Positions 4,387 through 27,050 of a DNA stretch of 64,000 nt are shown here, one piece after another (the stretch's first letter is position 1; the number at the start of each line of letters is the position of its first letter). The DNA is from an uncultured Rikenella sp. (GTDB lineage Bacteria > Bacteroidota > Bacteroidia > Bacteroidales > VadinHA17). Where the stretch lies: NCBI GenBank assembly GCA_964535795.1, contig CAZHTG010000005.1:13328-77327 (forward strand). The letters run 5' to 3'. Made by a program: the position numbers and the translations under genes. The notes beneath the pieces are model-generated. The model did no database searches, had not been told where the DNA came from, and was given only the letters and a program-made list of their open reading frames with translations.

Positions 4387-5907
4387 TTAAACCAGTGATT
4401 TGCCGGTCATCTCCGGTGGCACCGGCAGACCCATGAGCATAAGTATCGTTGGCGCCACATCGGCAAGAATACCGTTCCTGACACTCTTATAATTGTCACT
4501 GATGAGATAGAGGGGTACAGGATTCAGCGAGTGAGCCGTATTGGCCGAGCCGTCGGGGTTGAGGGCGTAATCAGCATTGCCGTGGTCGGCAATAATCAAA
4601 ACCTCGTAGTCATTGGCACGCGCTGCCTTAACCACATCACCGGCGCATGCGTCAACCGTTCTCACCGCCTTCACTATTGCTTCATAGATTCCCGTATGGC
4701 CAACCATATCACCGTTGGCGAAATTGAGGCATATAAAATCATGCTTCTTCTTCCCCAGCTCTTCAATGATGGCATCTCTGACGCTGAATGCACTCATCTC
4801 AGGCTGAAGGTCATAAGTGGCGACCTTAGGCGAAGGGATGAGGATCCGCTCCTCCCCGGGAAACTCTTTCTCCCTTCCTCCCGAGAAGAAAAAAGTTACG
4901 TGTGCATACTTCTCCGTCTCGGCTATCCGGAGCTGTTTCTTGCCGAGTTCTCCAAGAATCTCTCCCAGTGTCCTGTCGACATTATCCTTTGGGAAGATGA
5001 TCTTAAGTCCCCGGAACTTGTCGTCATAGGGTGTCATGGTAAGGTAATGCAGAGGGATTGTCTTCATGCCCGTCTCCGGCATATCCTGCTGTGTCAGTAC
5101 TATGGTGAGCTCGCGAGCCCTGTCGTTCCTGAAATTGATGAACACCACCACATCACCTTCGGTAATGGTTGCCAAAGGATTCCCGTCGGCACCGGCGACC
5201 ACTATCGGCTTCATGAACTCGTCAGTAACCCCCTCGTCATATGACGACTGCATGGCCTGCAAAATATCGGTTGTCATGGCGCCTTTGCCGTGTACAAGCA
5301 TTTCATAGGCCTCCCTTATCCTCTCCCACCTCTTGTCACGATCCATGGCATAGTACCTGCCGATGAACGATGCCACCGTGCCGTTACTGTTCTTAAGATG
5401 GTTCAGAAGGCTTGCCATATATCCCTTGCCGCTCCTGGGGTCTGTGTCACGTCCGTCACCGAATCCGTGAATATAAACCTTCTTCAGCCCGTATTCCATT
5501 GTCATGTCGCACAACGCGTAGAGGTGAGTGTCGAGCGAATGGACACCTCCGTCAGAGAGGAGTCCCATGAAATGAACCTTCACGCCCTTGTCACGGGCAT
5601 AGGCAAACGCTTCCCTGAGAGTTTCATTTGAACGGATCTCACCTGTGCGACAGGCTTTGTTGATCTTTACAAGATCCTGGTATACAACCCGTCCGGCCCC
5701 TATATTGAGGTGACCGACCTCCGAGTTGCCCATCTGCCCTTCCGGCAGCCCTACGTCCTCACCTGAGGTAAGGAGAAATGAAGATGGATATCTCTTTTTC
5801 AGTGAATCAATATTGGGTGTACCTGTTGAGCTGATGACATCACTCTTTGTTCCGTCACCTATTCCCCAGCCGTCGAGAATCATCAGCAACACTCTTTTTT
5901 CTTTCAT
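4387..5907 (-). CDS. gpmI: 2,3-bisphosphoglycerate-independent phosphoglycerate mutase
   Basis: [20 protein letters not shown] and ADHGNAD motifs, 506 aa. Confidence 0.95.
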
Positions 5908-5939
5908 TCAGTATCTGTATTAAGTAAATGAGCAGGATG

Positions 5940-5947
5940 CAAAAATA
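5940..5947 (-). promoter_or_regulatory. candidate Bacteroidota -7 promoter box (TAnnTTTG) for gpmI
   Basis: The minus strand reads TATTTTTG, 33 nt upstream of the gpmI ATG. Confidence 0.4.
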
Positions 5948-6011
5948 GCCATTTCCTCCGGAAGCAGAACCTCCCCGGGTGTATAACAAGGCAGGGACCG
6001 ATAAGTTTGCC

Positions 6012-9000
6012 TTACCTGGCTCCTCTTATTTCCCTGATCCTGATATTGTACTCTTTGTCAGGGCAGGTGGCCTCATAATCGATATCGGGTCCCACCCAGG
6101 CAGACCACTCCAGCTCCGAAAGATTTCTGGTAACCTTATCGCAAAGTCCCGAGGTCATGCATCTGACGTGCGCGGGGCGCTGAACCACATCCTGGCCAGT
6201 GGCAGCCAGGAAGGCATCGCCGTCCTCACAGAAGGCCAGGCAGATAATATCATTCCGGCTGTCTGCAAAAACTACAGGCGGCTGAGCCAGGTCCTTCAGT
6301 GACCAGAGTTTAATCTCTCCTGATTCATCGGAAGTAAGCATCTGTTCATCAGTACTGTCAAATGCTATCGATGTGACGGGGGATATATGTCCTTCGACCT
6401 TGCCCTCAAGGGTTCCTGCAGAGGTGTTCCAAATGTCTATCATACCAGAATTATCGCCTGTAGCCAGACGGTCTCCCCCGGGGATGAACCTGTGAGTGGT
6501 AATGGCCCTGCCATTTGTCTCAAGGAATGTCCTCTTCTCCGGTGACTTAGTTTGCCAGCAGAGCACTCTGCCGTCATTCGTAAGTGCCGCAACCATATTG
6601 TTTTTCCCGGATATTTCCAATGCGGTTATACCTGCAGCCTCATCGACTATCTTTATGCGTGTTCGTGTCGAAAGATTCCATTCATCTACTCCTCCCCCGG
6701 CGGCTGAAGAGTAGAGATGGTCTCCGGTGGCTGAGAACAGGACTGCGGATATTGCCCCGCAGGTGTCGCTGAGCTGATAACCGACGGAATCGTCAAAGAT
6801 GGGGATCATTATTATTTCTGATGTCTCTGTTCCGCAGGCGAGCCACTCAGCATCGGGGCTGACAGACATGGCACTGATCACCTTATCTCCTGACCATATG
6901 AGCTTATAGCCCTTTGCCGGGTCACTGCCCTGCCAGCGAAGGACCCTCCCCTTAGTGTCAGCTGTAAAGAAGTATTGTCCGGCTGATTCATCAGCCATTG
7001 CCGTGATACCTGCACCGTCAGGAATGAAGCGGGCATAAAACCTGTTTCCATATCTTTTACCAACCTCGTATAATGCTGAGAACACATCCGGGTCTTCTGT
7101 CATCCCCAGGTGCCTCTCATTGAAGAGATAAGCCTGCCAGGCCAGCAGGATCTGCAGGTCCTTTTGTCCGCCATGGTTGAGTGATCTCATTGCCAGCGAT
7201 CGGGCCAGCGACAGCATCCGATACCGGTTCTCTTCGGTTGCTTTTTGTAACGCAGCCTCTTTCCCGGAGGCTATTTCCCCCACTATGCTCTCGGCAGCCG
7301 TAGCCCTGACCTGTGCCTTTTCTGCAATGCCGTTCGCCGAGAGAGCGTTCATCCTCTCAATGCCTGCCTGTTCTGCTGCGCTTCGCAGGGTATCGGCAAG
7401 AAAATCGAGACTGTCACTCAGGCGCTCATTCAGGGCGACGGCCTCATCTTTCATCTGGACAGCAACTGATCTCTGTTTTTCAGCCCTGTTCCTTAGTGAG
7501 TATACCGTTCCGAAGGCCAGCAGTGAGGCCAGGGCCAGAAGTCCGAGAAGGCCTGCGATAAGCCGTGAGCGCTTTATGGTTTCCGTCCCTGTCTTCCTTT
7601 CATATTCCTCCCGGACCATGTATTCCTCCTCTGAGCTTTTCAGGAACAGCATAGCTCTTTCGAAGGCAGGGTCTGTCTTCAGGGCCCAGGCAAGGGTGGG
7701 ATTGTTCTCTTTCCTCCATCTCTGGGCTATTAGAAGATCAGGGGCTGTCCACAGCCTGCCATTGCCCTCCTGATATTGTTCGGCTGCAGCTGCGAGCTGC
7801 CTGTAGAGCTTTACTGATGAGGTCTCCTCATCCATCCAATTGCGCAACATCCCCCAGAGTCTTATTATGCTCTCATGGGTGAGGTCGAGTATGCTATCAC
7901 CGTTCAGCGGCACCTCCCTTGTCGGGGTGATGAATGAGTATTCAGGCGCCCTGAAGACATCTGCCACGGCAATGATCTCCTGTTGACTGCATCCTGTCTG
8001 GGCTGCTATCCCGGATATGCGTTCAGGCTTCCGCAGTTCCCTGCCGTCATCAGTCCTGGTGGTAATGGTCCGGAAGAGGCGGGCACAGACATAGCGGTGT
8101 CTCTCATCCAGAGATTCAAGGGCCTGCCCGGCATGCTGCGAGATTGCACCCTTCAGCCGGCCTACGGCTTCATAGTCTGCTATGCCTATCATCCGGCTCA
8201 GATCTCCCGTTCTGCTCCACTGGTTCCAGAGCCGCATCATGAGGTGCTGCAGCACAGGAAGCTGCCATGGTTTGTCTTCCAGGTCAGCCAGTATCAGTTT
8301 CACAAGTGACCGGTCTATAGATGCTCCTGCTATCTTCACCGGGTCTTCGATCACCGCTGTCAGAAGGTCATTTGAAATCTGAGGCAGCAGGTAACTGCCG
8401 CTGTTCATCAGGTTGGTCAGAGAATGAAAGCGCGCACACTCCGAAACATACTCTGATCGCAGGGTCAGAATAATGTGCAGGCCCTGGTCATGGCTATTTA
8501 ATGCATTTACTATCAGATCTATGAAGTCGGTAGCGTCATCACCCAGAGTGCCCCGGGAGGTTTCAGGACTGAATCTGAAAATCTCTTCAAACTGATCTAT
8601 CACTATTACTATCTGCTGTCTCAGGTTCTTTCTTATCCTGTTAACAACCTCCGTCAGCCCTTCAGTTCTGTTGTGCAGTGACGCCGCCACACTCGCCTCC
8701 GTCAGCTGGGTGAAGCCCGCACCGGCAGAGAGGACTGACAGCTCGCGTGCCAGATGGTCAACAGGGTTGCGGTCAGGTCTGAAGACCAGGTATGACCATG
8801 ACTTCCTTCCTTCGGCATTTTCTTTGAGAAGGGAGGGGATAACTCCTGAGAGCACCAGTGATGACTTACCGCTCCCGGAGGCACCTAAGACAGCAACAAA
8901 CCCATTCTCTTTCAGTCGGTTAGCAACTTTAAGAGTGCTCTCTGTCCGGCCAAAGAAAAGATGCGCCTCATCCGGCCGGAATGCCCTTAAACCCGGAAAC

Positions 9001-9035
9001 GGATTAGGCCGGATAATAATATTCTTGTCAGCCAT
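6012..9035 (-). CDS. nSTAND-type P-loop NTPase with an internal TM helix, a coiled coil and C-terminal WD40 repeats
   Basis: The N-terminus NPFPGLRAFRPDEAHLFFGR precedes Walker A GASGSGKS (nt 8862-8885) and Walker B IVIVIDQFEEIF, followed by helical/wHTH-like modules. One hydrophobic helix LIAGLLGLLALASLLAFGTVY is encoded at nt 7500-7562. An Ala/Glu-rich coiled coil follows, then WD40-like blades (GHISPVTSIAFD...GEIKLWSL; GDNSGMIDIWN). The tail LSELEWSAWVGPDIDYEATCP is typical of STAND-WD40 proteins. Confidence 0.8.
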   Translation of the reverse strand: MADKNIIIRPNPFPGLRAFRPDEAHLFFGRTESTLKVANRLKENGFVAVLGASGSGKSSLVLSGVIPSLLKENAEGRKSWSYLVFRPDRNPVDHLARELSVLSAGAGFTQLTEASVAASLHNRTEGLTEVVNRIRKNLRQQIVIVIDQFEEIFRFSPETSRGTLGDDATDFIDLIVNALNSHDQGLHIILTLRSEYVSECARFHSLTNLMNSGSYLLPQISNDLLTAVIEDPVKIAGASIDRSLVKLILADLEDKPWQLPVLQHLMMRLWNQWSRTGDLSRMIGIADYEAVGRLKGAISQHAGQALESLDERHRYVCARLFRTITTRTDDGRELRKPERISGIAAQTGCSQQEIIAVADVFRAPEYSFITPTREVPLNGDSILDLTHESIIRLWGMLRNWMDEETSSVKLYRQLAAAAEQYQEGNGRLWTAPDLLIAQRWRKENNPTLAWALKTDPAFERAMLFLKSSEEEYMVREEYERKTGTETIKRSRLIAGLLGLLALASLLAFGTVYSLRNRAEKQRSVAVQMKDEAVALNERLSDSLDFLADTLRSAAEQAGIERMNALSANGIAEKAQVRATAAESIVGEIASGKEAALQKATEENRYRMLSLARSLAMRSLNHGGQKDLQILLAWQAYLFNERHLGMTEDPDVFSALYEVGKRYGNRFYARFIPDGAGITAMADESAGQYFFTADTKGRVLRWQGSDPAKGYKLIWSGDKVISAMSVSPDAEWLACGTETSEIIMIPIFDDSVGYQLSDTCGAISAVLFSATGDHLYSSAAGGGVDEWNLSTRTRIKIVDEAAGITALEISGKNNMVAALTNDGRVLCWQTKSPEKRTFLETNGRAITTHRFIPGGDRLATGDNSGMIDIWNTSAGTLEGKVEGHISPVTSIAFDSTDEQMLTSDESGEIKLWSLKDLAQPPVVFADSRNDIICLAFCEDGDAFLAATGQDVVQRPAHVRCMTSGLCDKVTRNLSELEWSAWVGPDIDYEATCPDKEYNIRIREIRGAR

Positions 9036-9046
9036 AAAGAACAGTT

Positions 9047-11374
9047 TTAATAAACAGCTACAATCCCCTGATTGTCCATATAATGTACAAAGATATCAGT
9101 GTATTCGGAATAGTAAAAGACAAAGTCGGCAATATCGCTGACAGGAAGCGAATAAAGGCCGCTCTTGCCATTTTGTGATGGCACGATCCATGAAATAATT
9201 CCAGGCAGTGATTCTGCATCATAGCTCTCTGAGTATCTCACCGCTGATGCCAGTATCACTGTTTTCTCTTCGGGAATCCTCTTAAAGCACAGGCTAAGGA
9301 ACCTGGTCTTTTCAAAGAGCATGGCAGCATCAGGCACAGTGCTGCTGATGATGGCAGATATCCTGTTCCTTGCCGGCTCAGGCAGCCTCGACTCAGCATC
9401 ACGGTACCATTCAGGGTTCAGCGTACGTATTGCTCTTGCACTCTCTTCCTGCAGCAGCTGACTGTTGCTGAAGAGATATGAAACCGCCAGCTCCCTTTCA
9501 ATGCCGCCCCATTCCGATGCAACCTTATGCAATGCGCAGGCCTTTGTCCATATGCCGGTTACATTCTGTTCCGAGGCAAGTATGAAGGAAGCCACTGAAC
9601 GGCCCTTTATCTCTCTGAGAGGATAGCAGAGGGAGAGTTCTGCGAGTCTGCCCCTGTCGGTGTGGTTGCCCAGCAGTGCCTTCAGCGGCTTAATCAGAGT
9701 TCCGGCAGCAACCGTGTCAAGTGCCTCGGCTGCAATCCCGGCACCGCATGCAGTACCATCACCGGAACATGATCCGATCATATCTGCCGCAGACTTGCCG
9801 ACAAGTAGTGTCATGAGCGACTTGATAAAGTCCGCGTTAACTGACCTCTCATGATCAAGGGCTGCTGACAGGATGAAATACCTGTTCCTCCTTGCCTCCA
9901 TCTCCAGCACTGTCAGCCTGGCAATTGTATGCACCGTCCCGTTAAGTATCTCCTCCACCTTCTCTCTCTGCTTACCCTGTGGCACGTATCCTTTACGGCA
10001 CAGGTACCCGGCAGCTTTAAGGCGGACATTCAGATGACCTGAGTCAATGAAACGGGTGAGGTATTGAAGCGCACCTGACAGAGGCATCATTTCAAGGAGC
10101 CTCATAATCATGAGGTTTTCCCTCTCAGTGTTTGTCGTCCTGAGCGCCGAGCCGATGATGTCGGCAAAGATATCAGGCCCGAAGTGCCGGAGCACGGAGA
10201 AGGCCTCCCTGGCCGTTTCATGATGGCTGAGAGCCTGCAACACCTCCCCGCGCAGTTCACTGATACCATATCTTCCTGCGGAGATGATTCCTGTCCGCCT
10301 GATCTCCGGATCTGCATCACCCATGAGTTTGACTATTTCCTGAACCTGTGGCTCCCTTCTGCTCAGCATGATACCCCGGGAAGTTGCGGCTTTCTCGGAA
10401 ATTCCGGGAAGCCGGAGCAGGTCTGTGTTTCTGACAGGATCAGAATAATATTTTTCAACATTGTTTATGACAGCCGCCGCCGCCTGCCTGACGTTTTCGC
10501 CGAAGCGGTTGCCCGAGGCAATGAGTCTGAGTGCAGGTAGGAGCGCCGGATCAAACAATTTGCCGGCGGTAGCCACAACCTCGGCGGCGTAAACTTCATC
10601 TGCATGGTTGCTCAGATAATCAAGCCGGCCGCTTGCCAGATCAAGGTGATGACCGGCAAACAGGAGGACGCTTCTGAACCCCTTTGCCGGAACTATGGAT
10701 TCCTCAGAACTCTCTTCGGCCATGTCTTGATGCGCCCTCGCTGCCAGCTTTACGGAAAGGGCATTCCTGAAGTCAACCGAAAGTATTATGCCGAGGATTA
10801 TCATCACAAGGGCATAGAGGGGAAGAAGCAGAACCAACCCCGGGAGCCGGAACCCGGTCAGCCATTTGAGGAGGATAATAACAAAAAATAATGCAGCGAT
10901 GGCTGTCATTGTTCTGGTTGTCAGACTCCCGGTCTTCTCCCGGAGTCCGCATCGTTCCTCAAGAAGGTGAAGTACGACAGCCATTGAAGGAAGCGTGACG
11001 ATAAGCATGAAGGCGAGGTAGAAAACGGCAGCAAGAGATGTGAACAGGGCGGAGAGCAGGTTCAGCGATTCCTTTCCGCTGATATCATACCAGATATAAA
11101 TGAGTGCGGCCGGAGCAGATAACATAAGGAGGGTAAAGGGTGACAGGAGCAGCTTGCCCTGCAACCTCAGATTCCTTACCAGGGGCAGGTAGTAACGATT
11201 TCTCATTAACAGCCCCAGTCCTGTTCCGGTAACTATCAGGATAAGAGTATAGATCAAGGGTGTGGACCTGAAAAGGGAGTGTTCCGTAATGACCTCCAGG
11301 ATGGTGACTGCCGTTGCCACCATCAGAGCCAGGGCTGACCAGAAGACCCACAAATAACCGGTTTTCACTGCCAT
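9047..11374 (-). CDS. polytopic membrane protein with cytoplasmic HEAT/ARM-like repeats (hypothetical)
   Basis: The first ~215 aa contain about six hydrophobic helices. The middle region has HEAT-like repeats (DADPEIRRTGIISAGRYG..., HLNVRLKAAGYLCRKG). The C-terminal ~110 aa form a soluble domain of unclear type. It ends 11 nt upstream of the STAND gene. Confidence 0.6.
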   Translation of the reverse strand: MAVKTGYLWVFWSALALMVATAVTILEVITEHSLFRSTPLIYTLILIVTGTGLGLLMRNRYYLPLVRNLRLQGKLLLSPFTLLMLSAPAALIYIWYDISGKESLNLLSALFTSLAAVFYLAFMLIVTLPSMAVVLHLLEERCGLREKTGSLTTRTMTAIAALFFVIILLKWLTGFRLPGLVLLLPLYALVMIILGIILSVDFRNALSVKLAARAHQDMAEESSEESIVPAKGFRSVLLFAGHHLDLASGRLDYLSNHADEVYAAEVVATAGKLFDPALLPALRLIASGNRFGENVRQAAAAVINNVEKYYSDPVRNTDLLRLPGISEKAATSRGIMLSRREPQVQEIVKLMGDADPEIRRTGIISAGRYGISELRGEVLQALSHHETAREAFSVLRHFGPDIFADIIGSALRTTNTERENLMIMRLLEMMPLSGALQYLTRFIDSGHLNVRLKAAGYLCRKGYVPQGKQREKVEEILNGTVHTIARLTVLEMEARRNRYFILSAALDHERSVNADFIKSLMTLLVGKSAADMIGSCSGDGTACGAGIAAEALDTVAAGTLIKPLKALLGNHTDRGRLAELSLCYPLREIKGRSVASFILASEQNVTGIWTKACALHKVASEWGGIERELAVSYLFSNSQLLQEESARAIRTLNPEWYRDAESRLPEPARNRISAIISSTVPDAAMLFEKTRFLSLCFKRIPEEKTVILASAVRYSESYDAESLPGIISWIVPSQNGKSGLYSLPVSDIADFVFYYSEYTDIFVHYMDNQGIVAVY

Positions 11375-11441
11375 AAAGGTTTTGACTTATCCCGGAATTG
11401 AAACAGACTCACTTATACAAGATATGATAAATAAATAAACA

Positions 11442-11969
11442 CTACAAATATGCTCCCCTGGATCTTACGAGGCCGGCAATGACTGAGGTCATCTCCTCTA
11501 CCGTATCGTTCATGCCGTCGACTACTGCATCAGCCTGTTCATACCATTCGGTCCTGCGGTCGAGCAGTTCCTGTACCCGTTCAGTCATGCCAGTCTCGCC
11601 GGCTCCCCGCAGCAGCGGTCGTTTCGTTCTTGATTTCAGCAGTCGTGATGCAAGCGCTCCGGCCGGCAGTTTCAGGTACACTATCACGCCTGTTGATTTC
11701 ATGATTTCCATGTTTTCAGCTGAGCAGGGTGTTCCCCCTCCGCAGGCAATGACTGTCCTTGTACGTTCTGATACGGTTCGCAGCGCCCTGATTTCTGCCT
11801 TCCTGAAATAGTCCTCTCCCTTCTGTTCAAACAGCTCCGGCACGGTGGACGCCTCCTGCTCTTCAACAACCCTGTCAGTATCGGCAAAGTGCCACTGGAG
11901 GCAAGAGGCGATCTTCCTTCCGGTGGAGCTCTTGCCACTGCCCATGAAGCCTATCAGGTAGATATTCAC
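11442..11969 (-). CDS. aroK: shikimate kinase
   Basis: Walker A GFMGSGKS, 175 aa, and an overall shikimate-kinase pattern (DTD, GGG). Confidence 0.9.
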   Translation of the reverse strand: MNIYLIGFMGSGKSSTGRKIASCLQWHFADTDRVVEEQEASTVPELFEQKGEDYFRKAEIRALRTVSERTRTVIACGGGTPCSAENMEIMKSTGVIVYLKLPAGALASRLLKSRTKRPLLRGAGETGMTERVQELLDRRTEWYEQADAVVDGMNDTVEEMTSVIAGLVRSRGAYL

Positions 11970-11975
11970 GATGAG

Positions 11976-14621
11976 CTAGAGATCTAATTTCATCTGGGCG
12001 GGGTCATCCGGCAGTGGTCCCTGCGGAGCAGGCCCAGGCTCCCCGGCTTCCTCTTCCAGGGGTGGCGGAGGTGCTGCTTCACTCTTCACCACCGGTTCAA
12101 GCTCCCTTATATCAGTTACACTGTAGTTTGAGAGTCTTTTACCCTTGGCGCGGAAGCTTTTGACTCCGATAAACTGTGCAACCTCAATGATCTCCTGCCT
12201 GCGTCCCTCATTCTTTCCTCCGAAGCTGATCTCGAGGCGCGGGTATTCGACCTCCGTAAGGCTGATGAGTTTTGATCCCTCGCTGTCGGATATAAAGCAC
12301 TGCAGCCTCTCTGACTCTTCAAAGACGAAACGCTTGACGTAATAGAAGCCCTGCTCCTGGTCCCAGTAAACGACAGAAAATATTTTTGCCTCCCTGTATT
12401 TCTCAATAAGGAGGAGGTCATCTTCAAAGTGAAGTGAAAGATCGGTCCCGGAGGTACGAAACCATCCACCCCTGGTGATGACAAGCAGCATATCTTCCGA
12501 AGCGAATTCACCGAGGAATCTGCCCCTGCCGTCGACATTCAGTCTCATCACTGCCTCATCAAACCACAGCTTGCGGCCTCCCAGTGTTGAGAGACCTTTC
12601 TCCTTGAGGGTTATCTTATGTATCGCATTCTTTGTCAGGATATTGCCCATTGATGCCCGGCCCTTGATGGCAAGTTCGCCGAAGTCAAAGTCAAAAGTGA
12701 GTTTCTTAAGTCTGGCGCGGGGCTTATGATATACCCTGATTACCTCAGCCTCACCGTTGGGATTGGCGCTGAGGTACAGGATACGTGTTCCGGCGGTTCC
12801 GCGCCCCAGGCTGTATTCCTTGTCGCGGGTCAGGCCTGTCAGTGCGCACCGTTTGACATAGCATGGCCCCTCGCGTCCATCCTGGTAAACTATATTGTAA
12901 ATGGTTCTGGCGTCATTTCTCAGGAAGACCTGAACGTGGATCACATCCTTTCCCACGAAGAGTTTCTCGGAGACCTTGGTGATGAGATAGGTTCCGTCTT
13001 TTCTTATAACGATGATGTCATCGAGGTCAGAACAATCACAGATGTATTCATCCTTGCGTAGTCCCGTACCGATAAATCCCTCCTGGCGGTTTACATACAG
13101 CTTCGCGTTGACCGCAACAACTTTAGAGGCCTCTATGGTTTCGAAGCTTCTTATCTCAGTGCGCCGCTCAACATTCTTTCCGTATTTTTTCTTTATCTGC
13201 CGGTAATAGTTGATGGTGTAGGGGATTATATTCCCAAGGTGGTTGATAACCTCCTCCAGTTCACCCTCAATGCCTTTGATATGTTCGTCTGCGCGAGAGG
13301 AATCATACTTTGATATGCGTTTGATCTTTATCTCCGTCAGCCTGACAATGTCATCACGGGTTATCTCTCTCTTGAAGAGCTTCTTATAGGGCTTGAGGCC
13401 TTTGTCGATGGCAGTTATCACTGCCTCCCAGGTCTCACTCTCCTCAATGTCACGATAGATTCTCTTTTCGATAAATATCTTCTCGAGTGAGGAGAAGTGC
13501 CACTCCTCTTCAAGTTCCGCCTTGCGTATCTCCAGCTCGCGTGTGAGGAGCTTCACGGTCTGGTCTACGGAGTGCCTGAGAATATCGCTGACACCTACAA
13601 ACGCAGGCTTGTTCTCATCGGTTATGACGCAGGCGTTGGGTGAAATCGAGAGCTCGCAGTCGGTGAATGCATAGAGTGCATCAATGGTCTTGTCGGGAGA
13701 GATGCCTGACTGAAGTTGTATAACTATCTCAACTCCTCCTGCCGTATTGTCATCTATCCTTTTAATCTTGATCTTGCCCCTGTCGCTGGCTTTGACGATT
13801 GACTCGATAAGCGAAGTGGTGGTACGGCCGAATGGCACCTCAGTTATCACCAGTCCCTTTTTGTCGACCTTTTCGATCCTTGCTCTGACCTTCACGGCGC
13901 CGCCCCTGGCTCCGTCATTGTATCTGCTGACATCTATCATCCCTCCTGTCGGGAAATCGGGATAGAGTATGAAAGGCTTGTGCTGGAGGTAGTTTATTGA
14001 GGCATCAATCAGCTCATTGAAGTTATGCGGGAGTATCTTGGATGCCAGTCCCACCGCGATGCCCTCAACCCCCATTGCCAGCAGGAGCGGGAACTTGACC
14101 GGGAGGGTGACAGGCTCTCTGTTGCGCCCGTCGTAGGAGCTCATCCACTCTGTGGTTTTGTTGTTAAAGGCAACCTCAAGAGCAAATTTTGACAGTCGTG
14201 CCTCAATGTAGCGCGGGGCAGCGGCACTGTCACCTGTAAGGATGTTGCCCCAGTTACCCTGTGCTTCCACCAGCAGATCTTTCTGGCCAAGCTGCACCAG
14301 GGCATCTCCTATTGAGGCATCACCGTGCGGGTGGAACTGCATGGTATGCCCGATGATGTTTGCCACCTTGTTGAAGCGGCCGTCATCCATGCGTTTCATC
14401 GAGTAGAGTATCCTGCGCTGAACAGGTTTCAGTCCGTCAGACATATGAGGCACGGCGCGCTCGAGAATAACATACGAAGCATAGTCCAGGAACCAGTCCT
14501 GGTACATGCCTGACAATGCCGTGACGGTATGCAGGGCTTCGGGGATACGACCGTTAGTCTTTTCTTTTGTCTCCCCGCCGTCATCGGCCGGGATTCCTTC
14601 CAAAGGATCACTCTCTTTCAT
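11976..14621 (-). CDS. parC: type IIA topoisomerase subunit A, topoisomerase IV ParC-like
   Basis: DGLKPVQRRILY and the catalytic-Tyr region AAPRYIEARL. It lies directly downstream of the B subunit, which is the ParE-ParC arrangement of Bacteroidota. It has a Pro/Glu-rich tail. Confidence 0.8.
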   Translation of the reverse strand: MKESDPLEGIPADDGGETKEKTNGRIPEALHTVTALSGMYQDWFLDYASYVILERAVPHMSDGLKPVQRRILYSMKRMDDGRFNKVANIIGHTMQFHPHGDASIGDALVQLGQKDLLVEAQGNWGNILTGDSAAAPRYIEARLSKFALEVAFNNKTTEWMSSYDGRNREPVTLPVKFPLLLAMGVEGIAVGLASKILPHNFNELIDASINYLQHKPFILYPDFPTGGMIDVSRYNDGARGGAVKVRARIEKVDKKGLVITEVPFGRTTTSLIESIVKASDRGKIKIKRIDDNTAGGVEIVIQLQSGISPDKTIDALYAFTDCELSISPNACVITDENKPAFVGVSDILRHSVDQTVKLLTRELEIRKAELEEEWHFSSLEKIFIEKRIYRDIEESETWEAVITAIDKGLKPYKKLFKREITRDDIVRLTEIKIKRISKYDSSRADEHIKGIEGELEEVINHLGNIIPYTINYYRQIKKKYGKNVERRTEIRSFETIEASKVVAVNAKLYVNRQEGFIGTGLRKDEYICDCSDLDDIIVIRKDGTYLITKVSEKLFVGKDVIHVQVFLRNDARTIYNIVYQDGREGPCYVKRCALTGLTRDKEYSLGRGTAGTRILYLSANPNGEAEVIRVYHKPRARLKKLTFDFDFGELAIKGRASMGNILTKNAIHKITLKEKGLSTLGGRKLWFDEAVMRLNVDGRGRFLGEFASEDMLLVITRGGWFRTSGTDLSLHFEDDLLLIEKYREAKIFSVVYWDQEQGFYYVKRFVFEESERLQCFISDSEGSKLISLTEVEYPRLEISFGGKNEGRRQEIIEVAQFIGVKSFRAKGKRLSNYSVTDIRELEPVVKSEAAPPPPLEEEAGEPGPAPQGPLPDDPAQMKLDL

Positions 14622-14640: not shown

Positions 14641-16491
14641 TCACACCTGCAGTGCCTCGGGGATCTCCTCCTCGACTCTCAGGTTGTCAATGATAAAATC
14701 CTGCCGCTCAGGGGTGTTCTTACCCATGAAGAACTCGAGGAACTGGATATAGGAATCGGCCTTTTTCATGATCACGGGCTCAAGTCGCATATCCTTGCCT
14801 ATAAAATGGATGAATTCGTCAGGTGAAATCTCTCCGAGGCCCTTGAAGCGGGTTATCTCAGGGTCAGGACCAAGATCCCTGATAGCCTTCTGCCGTTCCT
14901 CGTCAGAGTAGCAGTAACGGGTCGTCTTCTTGTTTCTCACCCTGAAGAGTGGTGTCTGGAGGATGTAGACATGGCCCTTTCTGACCAGGTCAGGAAAGAA
15001 CTGCAGGAAAAAGGTCAGCAGCAGAAGGCGTATATGCATTCCGTCAACATCGGCGTCAGTGGCTATCACCACATTATTGTAACGCAGGTCTTCTATTGAC
15101 TCTTCAATATTGAGTGCAGCCTGGAGAAGGTTGAATTCCTCGTTCTCATAGACTATCTTCTTGGTCAGCCCGTAGCAGTTCAGGGGTTTGCCCCTGAGGC
15201 TGAAGACAGCCTGTGTCTCCACGTTACGCGACTTAGTGATAGAGCCGCTGGCTGAGTCGCCCTCGGTAATGAACAGGGTTGAATCAAGCTTCCGCTCATC
15301 ATTCGAGTTGTAGTGGATGCGGCAGTCGCGCAGCTTGCGGTTATGGAGACTCACCTTCTTTGCCCTTTCACGGGCCAGCTTCTGTATTGAGCTGATGGCC
15401 TTGCGCTCCTTCTCCGAGTCCTGTATCTTCTTCAGCATTATCCGGGCCGTCTCGCCGTTCTTGTGCAGGTAATCGTTGAGGTGCTTGCGGATGAACTCAA
15501 CAATGAAGTTACGAACGGAAGGTCCTTCCGGGCCCATATCCTTCGATCCGAGCTTGGTCTTGGTCTGAGACTCGAAAATGGGCTCTTCGATCTTGACCGA
15601 AATGGCCGCTATGATTGATGACCGTATGTCTGAAGCATCGAAATCCTTTTTATAGAACTCCTTTACCGTCCTGGTAAGAGCTTCGCGGAACGCAATGAGG
15701 TGTGTTCCTCCCTGCGATGTGTGCTGCCCGTTGACGAAGCTGTAATAATCCTCGCCGTACTGCTCTCCGTGGGTGAGTGCAATCTCAATGTCATCGCCCT
15801 TGAGGTGTATTATGGGATATAGCCCCTCCTGGCTCATGTTGTCATTAAGAAGGTCAACCAGTCCGTTGCGCGAGATGATTTTGGTGCCGTTGAAATTTAT
15901 GATCATACCTGCATTGAGATATGAGTAGTTCTTCAACATGCTCTCAACGTACTCGGAGATGTAATGGCAGTTGCCGAACATGGCCTCATCAGGTACGAAT
16001 GTGACCTCGGTGCCGTTATCCTCCTTCGTTGGCCTGAGAGGTTCATCCCTGACAATCTCGCCTGCGCGAAACTCTATCTCCTTAAGCTGTCCTTCCCGGA
16101 CAGACCTGAGAATGAATGACGATGAGAGGGCATTGACCGCCTTGATACCCACACCGTTCAGCCCCACTGACTTCTTAAAGGCCTTCGAGTCATACTTGGC
16201 TCCGGTGTTCATGCGTGACGATACATCAAGCACCTTGCCAAGGGGAATACCGCGGCCAAAATCGCGAACCTTTACCTCCCTGCCGGTGATGTTTACGTCA
16301 ATCTTGCGGCCGTAACCCATCATGTACTCATCAACCGCGTTATCCATCACCTCCTTGAGCATGACGTATATTCCGTCATCGAGAGACGAGCCGTCACCCA
16401 GCTTGCCGATGTACATACCGGGACGCAGCCTGATATGCTCCTTCCACTCAAGGGTTCTGATGTTCTCTTCAGAATAATTACCGTCCATCAT
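14641..16491 (-). CDS. parE: type IIA topoisomerase subunit B, topoisomerase IV ParE-like
   Basis: [10 protein letters not shown], a GHKL ATPase region, the Toprim motif [10 protein letters not shown] and SLRGKPLN. I start it at the [12 protein letters not shown] (16491) rather than the ORF-track start at 16554, because a -7 box lies at 16505-16512. Confidence 0.8.
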
Positions 16492-16504
16492 ACAAAATTT
16501 GGGG

Positions 16505-16512
16505 CAAATATA
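16505..16512 (-). promoter_or_regulatory. candidate -7 box (TAnnTTTG) for parE
   Basis: The minus strand reads TATATTTG, 14 nt upstream of the 16491 ATG. Confidence 0.35.
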
Positions 16513-16601
16513 AAGATTTACGCAAGGCGTTGTCAGCCGATTTATCAACAACACCGGTGAATTATTACCTTAAAATGCAGTATATCGGTCTCCTGCGGCT
16601 G

Positions 16602-20775: not shown

Positions 20776-22743
20776 CTAAAATACCACCCTGACCTGAGCC
20801 TTCAACTCATGTTTCAACCCATAGCCGGAGCCATTGCCGGATTCTGTGAAGGCATATTTTAACCTTGCTTCCATCCTCTCCGCAGGTTTCCACGAGACCA
20901 TGACGAATGAACGGGCCATTTCGCCATAGAGCGCCGGCACACTGAATGACGAGAGCAGGTCATTCTCCCAGGCATACAGGCGACTGTCCCATCCCCCTGA
21001 GGAGCAGATTGCATACCTGAACCAGAGCCGCAGCGGAACACTTCGGAATGAGCAGGAGAAATCCTGGCAGAGCAAATACCCCTTCTCTTCCAACGGGGAG
21101 ATGAAAGAAGCAGATGCCCGTGTGGTAAGACGCAAACCTGCGGCCGGGTTACAGTTGAGGACAAACCCGGCCTGTTGCCTGGTATGTTTCATGGACAATG
21201 CAGTGCCTGTTTCAGAAGCAGCATCATATTCACGCGATGAGGAGGTAAATGACAATCTGATTGAAATATCATCACGGGGCAGGTATTCTCCCTTTATCTC
21301 AATCCTGCTGCCGTATGAGGGTGCAGAGGAGCGGTACCGGGGCCAGGGTATCCGGTAATGATCAGCCGCTGCCGTGACGAACAGATGCCTGGCTGCCTCA
21401 AGGTGTAGTGATGCTGCTATGCCTGTCTCGTTACCCGACCCTGATCCGGCCATGAAGGCTCCCGAATGAAAGGCATGGTAATCAGGAGAGAAATGGCGGG
21501 CAAGGATATTGAATGTAACCCTCCCCGATGGCTTTGCCCTGAGACCTGCCGTTGCTGCCCATGACCCTGGAAGACTCACTCCGGCTTCCCCAAAGAGGAG
21601 AAGCGGTCCGCTACCCGCCCTGAAGTCTGCGGCCAGATTCAGCAGACGGCTGCCGTCAAAGGCATGGATCTCCTCCGGCCTGTTTCTGTCAGGACGGAAA
21701 GGCAGTGAAAACCATGTTGCTGTTCCAGTGACCCCTCCCCTGATCTTTCCGGCCCCCGCGGTAAGATGAATACCGGTAGCGGTTTCGGTCAGGCTGTTGC
21801 GCACCACGAGCTGAGATTCACTGACATGAAGACCGCCCCTGACAAGATTGCTCACCCCGGTGGCACTGCTGTCTTCATCGAAGAGTAACCGTGCATCAAT
21901 TTTGTTTGATGTAGCAAAGAGGACTGCTCCGCCATTTATGTTACCCAGCACCAGGCTTACGCCGCGGAAGAAATTGTTTTCTTCCGTGGATGTATATGGT
22001 GCTGCGGCGCTTCTCCCTGACATGAACGAGGGCGAGCTGAGCCATGAACCCATCCACCGGCTGCTGTTGAAAACCAGTCCCTCCCCCATCCGCACGGCAT
22101 AGTCACCAATTATAACCCTGTCGATCAGCCTCTTACCTTGAAATTCAAGGTATCCCGATAGAAAATCCGGCCCGGGAGCATTTCTGAATGTGAATGGTTC
22201 TCCCGGATCATTTTCCGCAGTCAGACCGAGGTTGATACGGCCCCGCTCATGTTTCATCTTCAATAATGACCGTACACCTTCCGGTTCGCTTTCACCGGAG
22301 ATGAAACGGGTTGAGGCGGTCAGTGTCACCATGGTCCGGCCATAGGTTCTGCCGCCAGCCTCCTGTGCCGGCTGAAGAGATATGAACGGGGCCATCAGCA
22401 TCACCGTGTTACGGTCAAAGGCAGGCAGCAGGGCCAGCTCATACAGTGTCACCACATTCCCGTTCTTTCTGATATGATCGGCCAGCACCATCACCTGGAA
22501 CTCCGTCAGGAAAAAGAGCCTTGATATTTCCTGCACATCACCGCTGTTAATATTAACGGGAGACTCCTTCAGGTCAGTCAGTTCCTCCAGGATTGCGGCC
22601 GGATCAGTGTCATCCGACAGAGCCAGTATCTCCTCAACAGACTCCCTGAAAGCCCCGTTTTCCTCCTGGCATAAAGCGGGATTGAGAAGGAGCACCGTGA
22701 TCATAAGCACAACGGTGGTCCTTTGGATTATCTTATTGTCCAT
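20776..22743 (-). CDS. outer-membrane beta-barrel protein with an N-terminal ComEA-like helix-hairpin-helix domain
   Basis: A signal peptide is followed by VNINSGDVQEISRLFFLTEFQVMVLADHIRKNGNVVTLYELALLPAFDRNTVMLMAPFISL, which follows the ComEA HhH pattern (NIN...R.NG...L...). About 500 aa of alternating beta-strand-like sequence then end in a terminal Phe (VRVVF). Confidence 0.65.
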   Translation of the reverse strand: MDNKIIQRTTVVLMITVLLLNPALCQEENGAFRESVEEILALSDDTDPAAILEELTDLKESPVNINSGDVQEISRLFFLTEFQVMVLADHIRKNGNVVTLYELALLPAFDRNTVMLMAPFISLQPAQEAGGRTYGRTMVTLTASTRFISGESEPEGVRSLLKMKHERGRINLGLTAENDPGEPFTFRNAPGPDFLSGYLEFQGKRLIDRVIIGDYAVRMGEGLVFNSSRWMGSWLSSPSFMSGRSAAAPYTSTEENNFFRGVSLVLGNINGGAVLFATSNKIDARLLFDEDSSATGVSNLVRGGLHVSESQLVVRNSLTETATGIHLTAGAGKIRGGVTGTATWFSLPFRPDRNRPEEIHAFDGSRLLNLAADFRAGSGPLLLFGEAGVSLPGSWAATAGLRAKPSGRVTFNILARHFSPDYHAFHSGAFMAGSGSGNETGIAASLHLEAARHLFVTAAADHYRIPWPRYRSSAPSYGSRIEIKGEYLPRDDISIRLSFTSSSREYDAASETGTALSMKHTRQQAGFVLNCNPAAGLRLTTRASASFISPLEEKGYLLCQDFSCSFRSVPLRLWFRYAICSSGGWDSRLYAWENDLLSSFSVPALYGEMARSFVMVSWKPAERMEARLKYAFTESGNGSGYGLKHELKAQVRVVF

Positions 22744-25409: not shown

Positions 25410-27050
25410 TTAATAATAATCATATCCGAAGACCTCCCTCATTGTGTTACGCAGATCAATCTTCACAACATCCATATCAACCTTTTTTCCCGTCTCCTTC
25501 TCTATGCTTGTCACGCCCTTGTCAGTATAGCCGCAAGGGTTGATATGGTTAAAATATGAGAGGTCAGTGCTGACGTTTAGGGCAAAGCCGTGCATAGTCA
25601 CGTGTCTGGATGCCCTTACCCCTATCGCACAAATTTTTCTTACCCGGGTACTGCTCTCCGGGTCTATCCAGACCCCCGTGGCACCCTTCAGGCGTCCTCC
25701 CTCGATACCGGAACGGGAGATACACCTGATAATTGCTTCTTCAAGCAGATGTATATAATCACGCAGGCCAATCTTCATCCCTTCAAGGTCGAAGATCGGG
25801 TATCCCACCAGCTGGCCCGGGCCGTGGTAGGTTATGTCACCTCCCCGGTCTATCCGGTAGAAAGCGGCATCGCGGGCCTGAAGCTGAATATAGTCGAGCA
25901 GAAGGTTCAGGTCTGATCCGCTCTTTCCCAATGTATAAACATGGTTATGCTCCACAAAGATGAGCCGGTCAGCTGTTTTGTTCCCGACCGGTGAACCGTT
26001 CCCTTTTTCCGCCACCTTGGCATTAAAGAACAGCTCCTGGTAGTCCCATGTCTCCTTATAGTCCTTGCGGCCGAGATCGTCAAATAAGACCCTCCGGGTT
26101 GGCTCGGGGCGCAGAACAGAAGTGATGGTAACTGTGGCAGGTGATGCTGAATTTTTCTCCCCGGCCGGGGCTCCCGGTTCGGCTCTCTCTTCTCCGTTCC
26201 CTGACATGATGTGTTTCTCAGCATGGAATGAGCTCCTCACCAGGGGTGAGCTCTCCACGAACTCAAATCCCATATCCAGTCCTCTCTGACGGTACTCCTC
26301 GAATTTTTCCGGGGTAACATATTCAACAACTGGAATATGTGCCAGTGTTGGAGCCAGATACTGCCCTATCGTCACGATTCTGCAACCGGTTGAATAAAGG
26401 TCGTTCAGTGCCTCCAGGATCTCCTCCTCCCCCTCTCCCAGACCCAGCATCAAGCCTGATTTGGTGCGGCATCCCCTTGAAGCCAGATGTCTGAGCACCG
26501 CAAGGCTCACCTCGTACTTCGCCACTGATCTGATCTGCGGTGTCAGCCTGCGTACTGTCTCGATATTATGTGAGATGACATCGGGGCCGGCGTCAATTAC
26601 CATGTCAATATCAGCCGTATTGCCTCTGAAGTCCGGTATGAGGGTTTCTATTGTCACTCCCGGGTTAACCTCCCTGATTTTTCTTATTGTGTCTGCCCAG
26701 TGGGCTGCGCCGCCGTCAGGCAGGTCATCGCGATCAACCGAGGTGATGACGCAGTGCCGGAGCCGCATCGTCTTTACTGCATCGGCAACGCGTGCAGGTT
26801 CATCGCTGTCGGGCGGCTCAGGCTTGCCGCTGCGCGTTCCGCAGAACTTGCATGAGCGGGTGCAGATGTCTCCGAGGATCATCAGTGTTGCAGTGCCGGC
26901 ATTCCAGCACTCGCCAATGTTCGGACAGTTTCCGGAGGTGCAGATGGTATGCAGCCGGTTATCCTCCACAAGACGCTTGACCATGGTGTAACTCTCCCCG
27001 CTTGCCCTCTCCATCCTGAGCCATGATGGCAGTCTCTTCTTGCCTGACAT
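25410..27050 (-). CDS. lipA-lipB: fused lipoyl synthase (N-terminal) and octanoyltransferase (C-terminal)
   Basis: aa 1-281 carry the LipA motifs CPNIGECW and CTRSCKFC (radical SAM) and end with SSPLVRSSFHAEKH. aa 282-318 form a low-complexity linker (nt 26097-26207). aa 319-546 carry the LipB motifs RIDRGGDITYHGPGQLVGYP and KICAIGVRASRHVTMHGFALNV. No stop codon separates the two halves. Confidence 0.85.
   Translation of the reverse strand: MSGKKRLPSWLRMERASGESYTMVKRLVEDNRLHTICTSGNCPNIGECWNAGTATLMILGDICTRSCKFCGTRSGKPEPPDSDEPARVADAVKTMRLRHCVITSVDRDDLPDGGAAHWADTIRKIREVNPGVTIETLIPDFRGNTADIDMVIDAGPDVISHNIETVRRLTPQIRSVAKYEVSLAVLRHLASRGCRTKSGLMLGLGEGEEEILEALNDLYSTGCRIVTIGQYLAPTLAHIPVVEYVTPEKFEEYRQRGLDMGFEFVESSPLVRSSFHAEKHIMSGNGEERAEPGAPAGEKNSASPATVTITSVLRPEPTRRVLFDDLGRKDYKETWDYQELFFNAKVAEKGNGSPVGNKTADRLIFVEHNHVYTLGKSGSDLNLLLDYIQLQARDAAFYRIDRGGDITYHGPGQLVGYPIFDLEGMKIGLRDYIHLLEEAIIRCISRSGIEGGRLKGATGVWIDPESSTRVRKICAIGVRASRHVTMHGFALNVSTDLSYFNHINPCGYTDKGVTSIEKETGKKVDMDVVKIDLRNTMREVFGYDYY

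Follow-up and report, generated by a model that had tools for sequence, protein, structure and literature searches.

Does a STAND-type NTPase gene that lies between aroK and gpmI, directly behind a membrane-protein gene, belong to a mobile defence cassette or to a resident signalling system? The question is raised by a 64-kb stretch of DNA from an uncultured Rikenella sp. (Bacteroidales), referred to here as the window and used for all window coordinates below, in which two large genes encode proteins of 775 and 1007 residues, designated A775 and B1007. An earlier note, made by reading the letters of this DNA, had placed the two open reading frames (ORFs) 11 nt apart between aroK and gpmI, and these coordinates were confirmed exactly. 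Neither can be a chance ORF, as full-length homologs at E = 0 number in the hundreds. Our answer, to which we assign a probability of about 0.5, is that the pair is a bicistronic, vertically inherited, resident receptor-type STAND signalling module that would act via a HEAT adaptor, and not a mobile defence cassette. It is read as resident because its GC content equals that of the flanks, its neighbours are housekeeping genes, its ratio of nonsynonymous to synonymous substitution (dN/dS) is comparable to that of aroK, and it matches no PADLOC system.

9047–11374, minus strand: gene A775, 775 residues, ATG start; truncated protein of the NTT-HEAT-cNBD family
9036–9046, minus strand: spacer between the two genes, 11 nt, no promoter motif
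6012–9035, minus strand: gene B1007, 1007 residues, ATG start; nSTAND1 NTPase, transmembrane (TM) helix, helical stalk, seven-bladed WD40 propeller and conserved C-terminal tail
11442–11969: aroK, upstream of A775, with a 67-nt gap between them
4387–5907: gpmI, downstream of B1007

Domain architecture of the two proteins

B1007 had been described in the earlier note as an nSTAND-type NTPase with a WD40 propeller as its repeat part and no recognisable effector domain, and its partner as a six-helix HEAT membrane protein; this description holds for both proteins. The Pfam nSTAND1 model PF20703 matches B1007 with 295.2 bits (cutoff 27.1; E = 1.5e-87) over profile positions 1–374 of 379. The Walker A motif GASGSGKSS (residues 51–59, positions 8859–8885) and the Walker B motif VIVIDQFE (residues 143–150, positions 8586–8609) are intact, and residues G51, A52, G54, G56, K57, S59, D147, Q148, F149 and E150 are invariant in 17–18 orthologs down to about 34% identity, as are many further residues of the NTPase. 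Several WD40/β-propeller models of Pfam match residues ~700–950. The NTPase starts at residue 12 with no domain before it, and no enzymatic effector domain was found anywhere in the protein in Pfam, NCBIfam or PADLOC.

7764–9002, minus strand: nSTAND1 NTPase module, B1007 residues 12–424 (Pfam E = 1.5e-87, invariant motifs)
7494–7562, minus strand: single TM helix, residues 492–514 (Kyte-Doolittle 2.24; predicted N-in/C-out)
7050–7493, minus strand: helical, coiled-coil-like stalk from membrane to propeller, residues 515–662 (AlphaFold helices)
6174–7034, minus strand: seven-bladed WD40 propeller of 28 strands, residues 668–954 (profiles and model; predicted periplasmic)
6015–6173, minus strand: conserved C-terminal tail, residues 955–1007 (RP...C...RNL..EW...Y..TCP; invariant columns)

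The AlphaFold model of B1007 (predicted local distance difference test, pLDDT, 77.8) is composed of the NTPase (residues 12–450), a continuous helix that includes the TM segment (458–518), a stalk reaching to residue ~662, a seven-bladed propeller and a short tail; its helices span residues 458–518, 544–620 and 625–662, with low pLDDT over residues 505–569. Among PDB structures, whole-chain fold comparison ranks Apaf-1 first (E ~ 3e-19) and seven-bladed propellers next. All orthologs share the same length and architecture, with exactly one TM helix, at residues ~490–535, in each of the 21 examined from three orders (21/21), and this helix is present also in the B proteins of Persicobacter and Runella. 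Flanking it in the orthologs are 131 lysine and arginine residues on the N-terminal side and 89 on the C-terminal side, and the N-terminal NTPase has no signal peptide. Owing to the single TM helix, the more positive N-terminal flank and the lack of a signal peptide, the predicted topology is N-in/C-out, with stalk and propeller outside the cytoplasmic membrane; the WD40 propeller of B1007 thus probably faces the periplasm. Within the tail, whose motif is invariant across orders, is a near-invariant cysteine pair, C965/C991, which could form a disulfide if the tail domain is periplasmic. Many WD40 STAND proteins of actinobacteria and cyanobacteria end in a similar way (RNLT..EW...Y..TCP).

Encoded upstream is A775, for which hydropathy, AlphaFold and HEAT profiles agree on a membrane domain followed by a solenoid.

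10739–11374, minus strand: six-helix membrane domain, A775 residues 1–212, homologous to the TM7–12 half of an NTT/TLC transporter
9338–10687, minus strand: cytoplasmic HEAT/ARM-type α-solenoid, residues 230–679, including the invariant 'WTKACALH' region
9050–9337, minus strand: vestigial cNBD-like domain, residues 680–775, which aligns with cNBD-bearing relatives and CRP and is the most conserved part of A775

Six TM helices are placed within residues 8–211 by hydropathy and by the AlphaFold model (pLDDT 84, predicted TM-score 0.79), which consists of a six-helix bundle, a long α-solenoid and a small C-terminal α/β domain. The Pfam HEAT_2 match is borderline (28.9 bits, cutoff 27.7), and the profile of the A775 family matches alphaRep/PBS-lyase-type HEAT proteins with E = 5.7e-7. 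A Foldseek search of the PDB with the model returned generic ARM/HEAT solenoids (karyopherin, CAND1 and designed ARM proteins; best E = 3e-3) and no specific relative.

The membrane domain can be placed through longer relatives. An exhaustive profile search returned 1181 relatives of A775, including proteins of ~1000–1070 residues, to residues ~270–950 of which A775 aligns, and proteins of ~590 residues that match only its soluble part. Aligned by hhalign with 23 of the long relatives, the A775 family corresponds to their C-terminal three quarters (probability 100%, E = 2.3e-67, 750 columns), its membrane domain falling on columns ~225–440 with an 11-residue deletion. Of these 23, 18 have HEAT_2, 7 a C-terminal cNMP_binding domain (best E = 3.7e-11) and 7 an N-terminal MFS_1 match, and the long relatives are annotated by JGI as 'ATP:ADP antiporter'. 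Several full-length relatives pass the Pfam TLC model (PF03219; 32–42 bits, cutoff 21), and the full-length family profile matches the solved plastid ADP/ATP carrier NTT1 (PDB 9j3j) with E = 2.9e-10. Because of these TLC, HEAT_2, cNMP_binding and NTT1 matches, the long relatives are assigned to the NTT-HEAT(-cNBD) fusion family. A775 itself has no Pfam TLC or MFS match at E ≤ 1, and NTT was not detected in a direct profile search of the PDB with the A775 family; the homology of its membrane half to NTT is therefore transitive, seen via the full-length relatives.

By these alignments, A775 is a truncated offshoot of the NTT-HEAT(-cNBD) family. Of the transporter it has kept just the TM7–12 half, short of the 12-helix core of NTT/TLC proteins, and the aligned NTT motif 'SRLFSKSLKDS' is lost through the 11-residue deletion, in a region (FSKSxK...P..K..Y..LD) kept in relatives. 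Pfam finds no cNMP_binding match in A775, the C-terminal domain of which has a ~60-residue internal deletion, comprising most of the β-roll, relative to cNBD-bearing relatives. We rejected the possibility that A775 is a pseudogene or begins at the wrong start codon, since the six-helix form is stably kept in 54 species, selection on it is purifying, and the 67 nt that separate it from aroK are too few to encode further helices.

Conservation and linkage of the two gene families

A scan of Bacteroidales with one genome per species, in which neighbours were placed by tblastn of window proteins, found 54 loci. The A and B genes are adjacent in 54/54 of these species-level genomes, as a single copy at one fixed locus, within the collinear block parE-parC-aroK-A-B-gpmI-DUF3109-M20. 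Many full-length, unnamed homologs of A775 are present in metagenome-assembled genomes of the order. The spacer measures 11–18 nt in orthologs; in a sister lineage, ~43% identical, the two genes are arranged alike and overlap by 4 nt.

Pairwise dN/dS between the window genes and six orthologous loci is 0.12–0.26 for A775 overall (0.19–0.26 for the six-helix domain and 0–0.1 for the last 75 residues), 0.07–0.13 for the NTPase of B1007 and 0.15–0.38 for its propeller; reference values are 0.11–0.21 for aroK and ~0.04 for parC. Purifying selection thus acts throughout the pair; sensors of conflict systems would be expected to show diversifying selection instead. The GC content of the pair, 0.49–0.54, is the same as that of its flanks. 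Among the other large ORFs of the window that were scanned with Pfam, most have housekeeping functions (CorC, Obg, RecJ, a LipA/LipB fusion, a class II aminoacyl-tRNA synthetase, CarB and PBP2), and no mobile or defence gene was seen among the neighbours scanned. PADLOC gave no system-level match for A775 or B1007, only weak P-loop-level matches to mad3 and mad8, and an NCBIfam scan of the two proteins returned nothing past weak P-loop-level matches. In Bacteroidales the pair is vertically inherited, part of the core genome and apparently non-mobile.

Beyond the six-helix form, the full-length NTT-HEAT family was used to seed 80 metagenomic loci, of which 70 include downstream sequence. The gene that follows NTT-HEAT encodes nSTAND1 in 34 of them, HAMP-SpoIIE in 35 and another protein in 1; complete SpoIIE genes are followed by nSTAND1 in 27/27 loci, and altogether the full-length gene is linked to an orthologous nSTAND1-TM-WD40 gene in 69/70. 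In the exceptional locus (L133, 1044–2328), the NTT-HEAT gene and the nSTAND1 match lie ~1.3 kb apart; SpoIIE is absent, and no nSTAND1 start follows directly. Inserted DNA, a divergent N-terminus or faulty assembly could account for this. Upstream of NTT-HEAT is aroK in 58/58 metagenomic loci.

Longer contigs reveal what else travels with the two families. Two from Bacteroidales read parE-parC-aroK-NTT/HEAT-HAMP/SpoIIE-nSTAND1/WD40 and then an outer-membrane protein (OMP) β-barrel. In a metagenome-assembled genome of Vicingaceae (Flavobacteriales), gldLMN and an ABC-F gene are followed by NTT-HEAT-cNBD, HAMP-SpoIIE, DUF4062, nSTAND1/WD40 and an OMP β-barrel; the same five genes come after exbBD, folC, ADH and a glycosyltransferase gene in L143, and the five-gene order recurs with overlapping genes in L058 and L146, the latter a tightly overlapping operon. 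The HAMP-SpoIIE proteins are composed of a TM helix, a loop of ~275 residues, a second TM helix, HAMP and PP2C, which is a receptor-phosphatase topology, and the OMPs have a signal peptide. Lying between HAMP-SpoIIE and nSTAND1 is the DUF4062 gene of the five-gene form (L139, 12402–13829; L058, 5661–7112; L143, 12256–13734; L146, 4557–5975), the stop of which overlaps the nSTAND1 start. Its product is a soluble protein of ~475–490 residues with a central DUF4062, a TIR-like N-terminal start 'DIYISY' (weak TIR_2) and a similar third, C-terminal unit, and it may consist of three tandem TIR-like domains.

The partner of B varies in its membrane part. A 746-residue variant is followed by the SpoIIE gene, and in one Bacteroidales lineage the partner is a soluble, HEAT-only protein of 593 residues without TM helices, in the order aroK-HEAT-nSTAND1/WD40-gpmI. 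The partner is thus found in 12-TM, 6-TM and 0-TM forms, each beside B. As the HEAT part is kept in all three and holds the most constrained residues, it is taken as the conserved core of the partnership. Accessory genes sit between A and B in relatives, with the pair still linked.

In two cultured Cytophagales the linkage is carried on large secondary replicons. Plasmid pPP2 of Persicobacter psychrovividus (L144, NZ_AP025294.1, 268–287 kb) encodes WP_338398658.1 and WP_338398657.1, 11 nt apart. The surroundings of this pair are genes of a contractile injection system: sheath, tail tube and baseplate V upstream, and downstream a hypothetical gene and GH18, then DUF4255 and a tape-measure protein; the link, a single example, may be regulatory or a coincidence. 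On a Runella rosea plasmid (L145, NZ_CP030852.1, 59–72 kb), two STAS genes, glgX and a gene for an RsbW-type HATPase_c_2 kinase precede nSTAND1-WD40, which is separated by genes for a TonB-dependent receptor and GNAT from a downstream NTT-HEAT gene annotated 'MFS transporter', then a sensor histidine kinase; this order suggests outer-membrane and partner-switching connections. On plasmids, the searches with A and with B share their top three records, and the two families are linked in at least 4 loci with completely different flanks and in other orders.

The earlier note had treated the two genes as one module, had judged its composition to be like that of the flanks and had suggested that it may be resident rather than a recently acquired island. 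Co-location of homologs in the species genomes, in the metagenomic loci and in three further flank contexts of Flavobacteriales and Cytophagales bears out the first point and the GC values the second, and fixed synteny, housekeeping neighbours and purifying selection favour the third. A functional link of the pair to parE, parC or aroK was considered and rejected, the module having other flanks outside Bacteroidales.

Proposed mechanism and alternative explanations

We propose that B1007 would serve as a receptor-type STAND (NLR-like) ATPase, with its nSTAND1 NTPase in the cytoplasm and its WD40 propeller held in the periplasm by the TM helix and a stalk of ~150 residues. The propeller would bind an envelope or extracellular ligand, or an outer-membrane protein, and the signal of the bound ligand would then pass through the membrane and switch the NTPase, by ADP to ATP exchange and oligomerisation. 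A775 would be the dedicated partner: its cytoplasmic HEAT solenoid, together with the vestigial cNBD, would bind to the NTPase, either as an adaptor or as the output, and its membrane part, a degenerate NTT half, would mainly serve to co-localise it with B1007 at the membrane. The window pair would then be a reduced form of a wider Bacteroidota module, NTT-HEAT(-cNBD) plus nSTAND1-TM-WD40, to which a HAMP-PP2C receptor phosphatase, a DUF4062 protein, STAS and RsbW-type proteins and OMPs are variably added. Within this scheme, we infer the physical interaction of A775 with B1007, the periplasmic sensing and the nature of signal and output.

The earlier note had named the TM helix of B1007 and the six-helix HEAT protein as the sole plausible outputs. 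The membrane part of the HEAT protein is probably not the essential output, because it is degenerate in A775 and absent in one sister lineage. The PP2C, STAS and RsbW-type kinase or DUF4062 genes of relatives point to phospho-relay or NAD+-based outputs, and their products are the more plausible outputs compared with the membrane part of A775. More tentatively, and somewhat short of even odds, we would extend the scheme to a hitherto unrecognised, phylum-wide Bacteroidota pathway in which an NLR-like STAND transmembrane receptor with an extracytoplasmic WD40 propeller feeds, via an NTT-derived HEAT adaptor, into PP2C/STAS/RsbW or NADase outputs.

Several observations weigh against a resident receptor module. 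The charge bias around the TM helix is weak in B1007 itself (+5/+5). The position of this helix, between NTPase and propeller, makes canonical autoinhibition in cis, by C-terminal repeats bent back onto the NTPase, impossible, so that either the switching logic differs from that of Apaf-1 or the predicted topology is wrong. PP2C, DUF4062 and STAS/RsbW genes are absent from the 64-kb window, in which tblastn with the module proteins matches only A and B. Within Bacteroidales, the aroK–A junction is as conserved as the A–B junction; the linkage there could therefore be frozen synteny, and the argument rests on the fewer loci with other flanks. The nSTAND1 clade was defined in conflict systems (PMC8195603), and DUF4062, which is TIR-like, is a proven anti-phage NADase domain (10.64898/2026.05.01.722283); given the DUF4062 gene of the five-gene relatives, the ancestral module may have been immune.

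These last points lead to a rather unlikely alternative, an Avs/NLR-type system for phage defence or conflict that has become fixed in the chromosome, in which the STAND protein would sense an invader and the membrane domain of the partner, or an NADase, would kill or arrest the cell. The systems in which nSTAND1 was defined are predicted to counter invaders, and other plasmid nSTAND1 genes resemble conflict loci, with caspase, trypsin, CHAT, TIR or FGE fused or adjacent; in a Caballeronia example, a TIR protein is encoded next to nSTAND1-WD40, beside IS3, on a mobilizable plasmid. The overlap of the DUF4062 and nSTAND1 genes in five-gene relatives, reminiscent of DUF4062-NACHT-WD40 in TEP1/NWD1, the anti-phage activity of DUF4062 and the location of the Persicobacter pair inside a contractile-injection-system locus fit such a role. 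TM-domain and cNMP-binding effectors are, moreover, common in abortive-infection systems. A defence system would, however, have to be reconciled with a single copy at one locus in 54 species and related lineages, housekeeping surroundings without mobile or defence genes nearby, the lack of a PADLOC system match and a sensor under purifying rather than diversifying selection. The propeller, if periplasmic as predicted, could not meet cytoplasmic phage proteins, and the form in the window lacks DUF4062 and has a membrane domain that is degenerate or dispensable.

Regulated transport, in which a dimer of A775 would rebuild a 12-helix NTT-like nucleotide or NAD+ transporter gated by the STAND protein on a periplasmic cue, appears improbable. 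Its full-length relatives are genuine NTT/TLC homologs and its own helices form one MFS-type half under purifying selection (dN/dS ~0.2), but A775 has lost the NTT signature motif and has no TLC or MFS match of its own. Some NTTs carry NAD+ (PMC5381601), and the cNBD on the ancestral protein suggests ligand gating; yet the HEAT partner of the sister lineage, devoid of a membrane domain, still lies beside B, so that transport cannot be the conserved function of the pairing. That A and B are functionally unrelated neighbours, held together by conserved gene order in a slowly rearranging region, we regard as very improbable. Adjacency in Bacteroidales is not special by itself, the whole block from parE to M20 being collinear in the clade and aroK standing upstream in every metagenomic locus in which its position was scored (58/58); linkage in different flanks and orders, in at least 4 loci, is not explained in this way, nor are the short spacers (11–18 nt, or a 4-nt overlap), the insertion of accessory genes between A and B without parting them, and the shared top three plasmid records. 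The resident receptor module, in which the HEAT part is the conserved element of the partner, remains our preferred explanation.

Known systems, transcription and neighbouring genes

The nSTAND1 clade of STAND NTPases was described by Kaur, Iyer, Burroughs and Aravind (eLife 2021, PMC8195603). B1007 shares all sequence features of the clade, with a match to the full-length model, intact Walker A and B motifs and a C-terminal WD40 propeller. Described members, in contrast, carry N-terminal effectors or effector-associated domains and lie in conflict loci that vary and are often mobile, whereas B1007 has no N-terminal domain, a TM helix between NTPase and propeller, the status of a core gene and a fixed NTT-HEAT partner. 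Compared with Avs-like and other conflict STANDs, B1007 lacks a fused or adjacent effector or effector-associated domain, an adjacent DUF4062 gene being found only in distant relatives, and the pair lacks a defence-island or mobile context, a patchy distribution and a fast-evolving sensor. Apaf-1 and TEP1/NWD1 share with B1007 the layout of a NOD, a helical domain and a WD40 propeller, and the DUF4062 gene overlapping the STAND gene in the five-gene relatives amounts to a split version of the DUF4062-NACHT-WD40 architecture of TEP1/NWD1. Those proteins are soluble, with a propeller that folds back on the NTPase in cis, unlike B1007 with its intervening TM helix; the NTPase of B1007 is nSTAND1 rather than AP-ATPase or NACHT, and the form in the window has no effector domain.

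The NTT-HEAT(-cNBD) fusion family was called widespread and uncharacterised by Major, Embley and Williams (GBE 2017, PMC5381601). A775 is homologous to it over 750 columns, including the HEAT region and the C-terminus, and differs by the loss of the first six helices and of the NTT motif and by a cNBD that is only vestigial. Linkage of the family to STAND, PP2C or DUF4062 genes is not reported in the 2017 paper, and linkage of NTT-HEAT to nSTAND1 is not mentioned in the DUF4062 preprint (10.64898/2026.05.01.722283).

Relatives of the pair that carry HAMP-SpoIIE, or STAS together with a HATPase_c_2 kinase, resemble partner-switching modules (SpoIIE/RsbU, STAS, RsbW/SpoIIAB). This resemblance suggests that the STAND/HEAT pair may feed a partner-switching cascade; the link is one of gene neighbourhood only, the window has no such genes, and no sigma or anti-sigma factor was identified. 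Single-pass receptor kinases of the PknB type join a cytoplasmic enzyme through a TM helix to an extracytoplasmic repeat sensor. By analogy, B1007 has a cytoplasmic nucleotide-dependent domain, one TM helix and an external propeller sensor, differing in that its cytoplasmic module is a STAND NTPase, not a kinase, with no sequence relationship. A two-gene, membrane-associated arrangement with STAND-type components is shared with EACC1, a single-TM domain with a caspase-led protein, concentrated in actinobacteria and sometimes found with nSTAND1 (Kaur et al., eLife 2020, PMC7159879). Identification of A775 as EACC1 was rejected, A775 being a six-helix, NTT-derived HEAT protein with no caspase present.

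No prior description of the linkage between NTT-HEAT and nSTAND1-TM-WD40, or of the accessory genes, was found in the open-access papers searched, and neither there nor in PADLOC was a characterised system of the composition A775 plus B1007 found, in agreement with the earlier note, which had set the pair apart from characterised Avs/NLR-like architectures. As judged from sequence, the pair would be a STAND signalling switch that is new in its topology, its partner and its mode of evolution, its mechanism being inferred. Until now, prokaryotic STAND/NLR-like ATPases have mostly been regarded as immune sensors in the cytoplasm or as transcription factors; a conserved, apparently non-mobile STAND protein with the topology of a transmembrane receptor and a dedicated partner would widen the roles of bacterial NLR-like switches and, if the proposal is true, amount to a non-immune, housekeeping use of one. 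The NTT-HEAT fusion family, conserved also in cyanobacteria, Chlamydia and oomycetes and now tied to a specific set of signalling partners, would likewise be placed in a functional setting for the first time. The linkage is genetically testable in the cultured Runella rosea HYN0085 and Persicobacter psychrovividus NBRC 101262, and the occurrence of partners with 12, 6 and no TM helices offers a natural experiment on which part of the partner is needed.

Flanking the pair are two conserved sequence elements.

5940–5947, minus strand: TATTTTTG motif, a TAnnTTTG -7 box, 33 nt upstream of the gpmI ATG in 11/11 genomes compared
11403–11424, minus strand: conserved block TATCTTGTATAAGTGAGTCTGT in the aroK–A775 spacer, recognisable in 10/11 genomes compared, least clearly in L015, and substituted at some letters in most

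TAnnTTTG is the Bacteroidetes-type -7 promoter consensus, and its background here is 0.23 matches per kb per strand. The TATTTTTG motif is probably the gpmI promoter, separating gpmI transcriptionally from the pair; this conserved motif implies that the transcription unit ends after B. No TAnnTTTG motif is present in the A–B spacer, and the arrangement is consistent with a two-gene transcription unit, A775–B1007. The TATCTTGTATAAGTGAGTCTGT block may be a non-consensus promoter, an operator or another regulatory element of the pair. A sigma-70 promoter and terminator scan of positions 5700–12100 gave 5 hits where 4.1 were expected and 10 where 5.3 were expected, no more than noise and all inside coding sequence, and an Rfam scan of the window returned no RNA family.

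Three further genes of the window merit mention. A 655-residue ORF (20776–22743, minus strand) has no Pfam match at E ≤ 1e-5. The parE ORF (14641–16554, minus strand) begins at a GTG with an N-terminal extension of ~20 residues; many parE orthologs align only from residue 13–17 on, and the true start is probably an internal ATG pair. Encoded at 25410–27050 on the minus strand is a 546-residue protein that joins a lipoyl-synthase-like Radical_SAM domain to an LplA-B_cat lipoyl/octanoyl transferase domain, an apparent LipA-LipB fusion.

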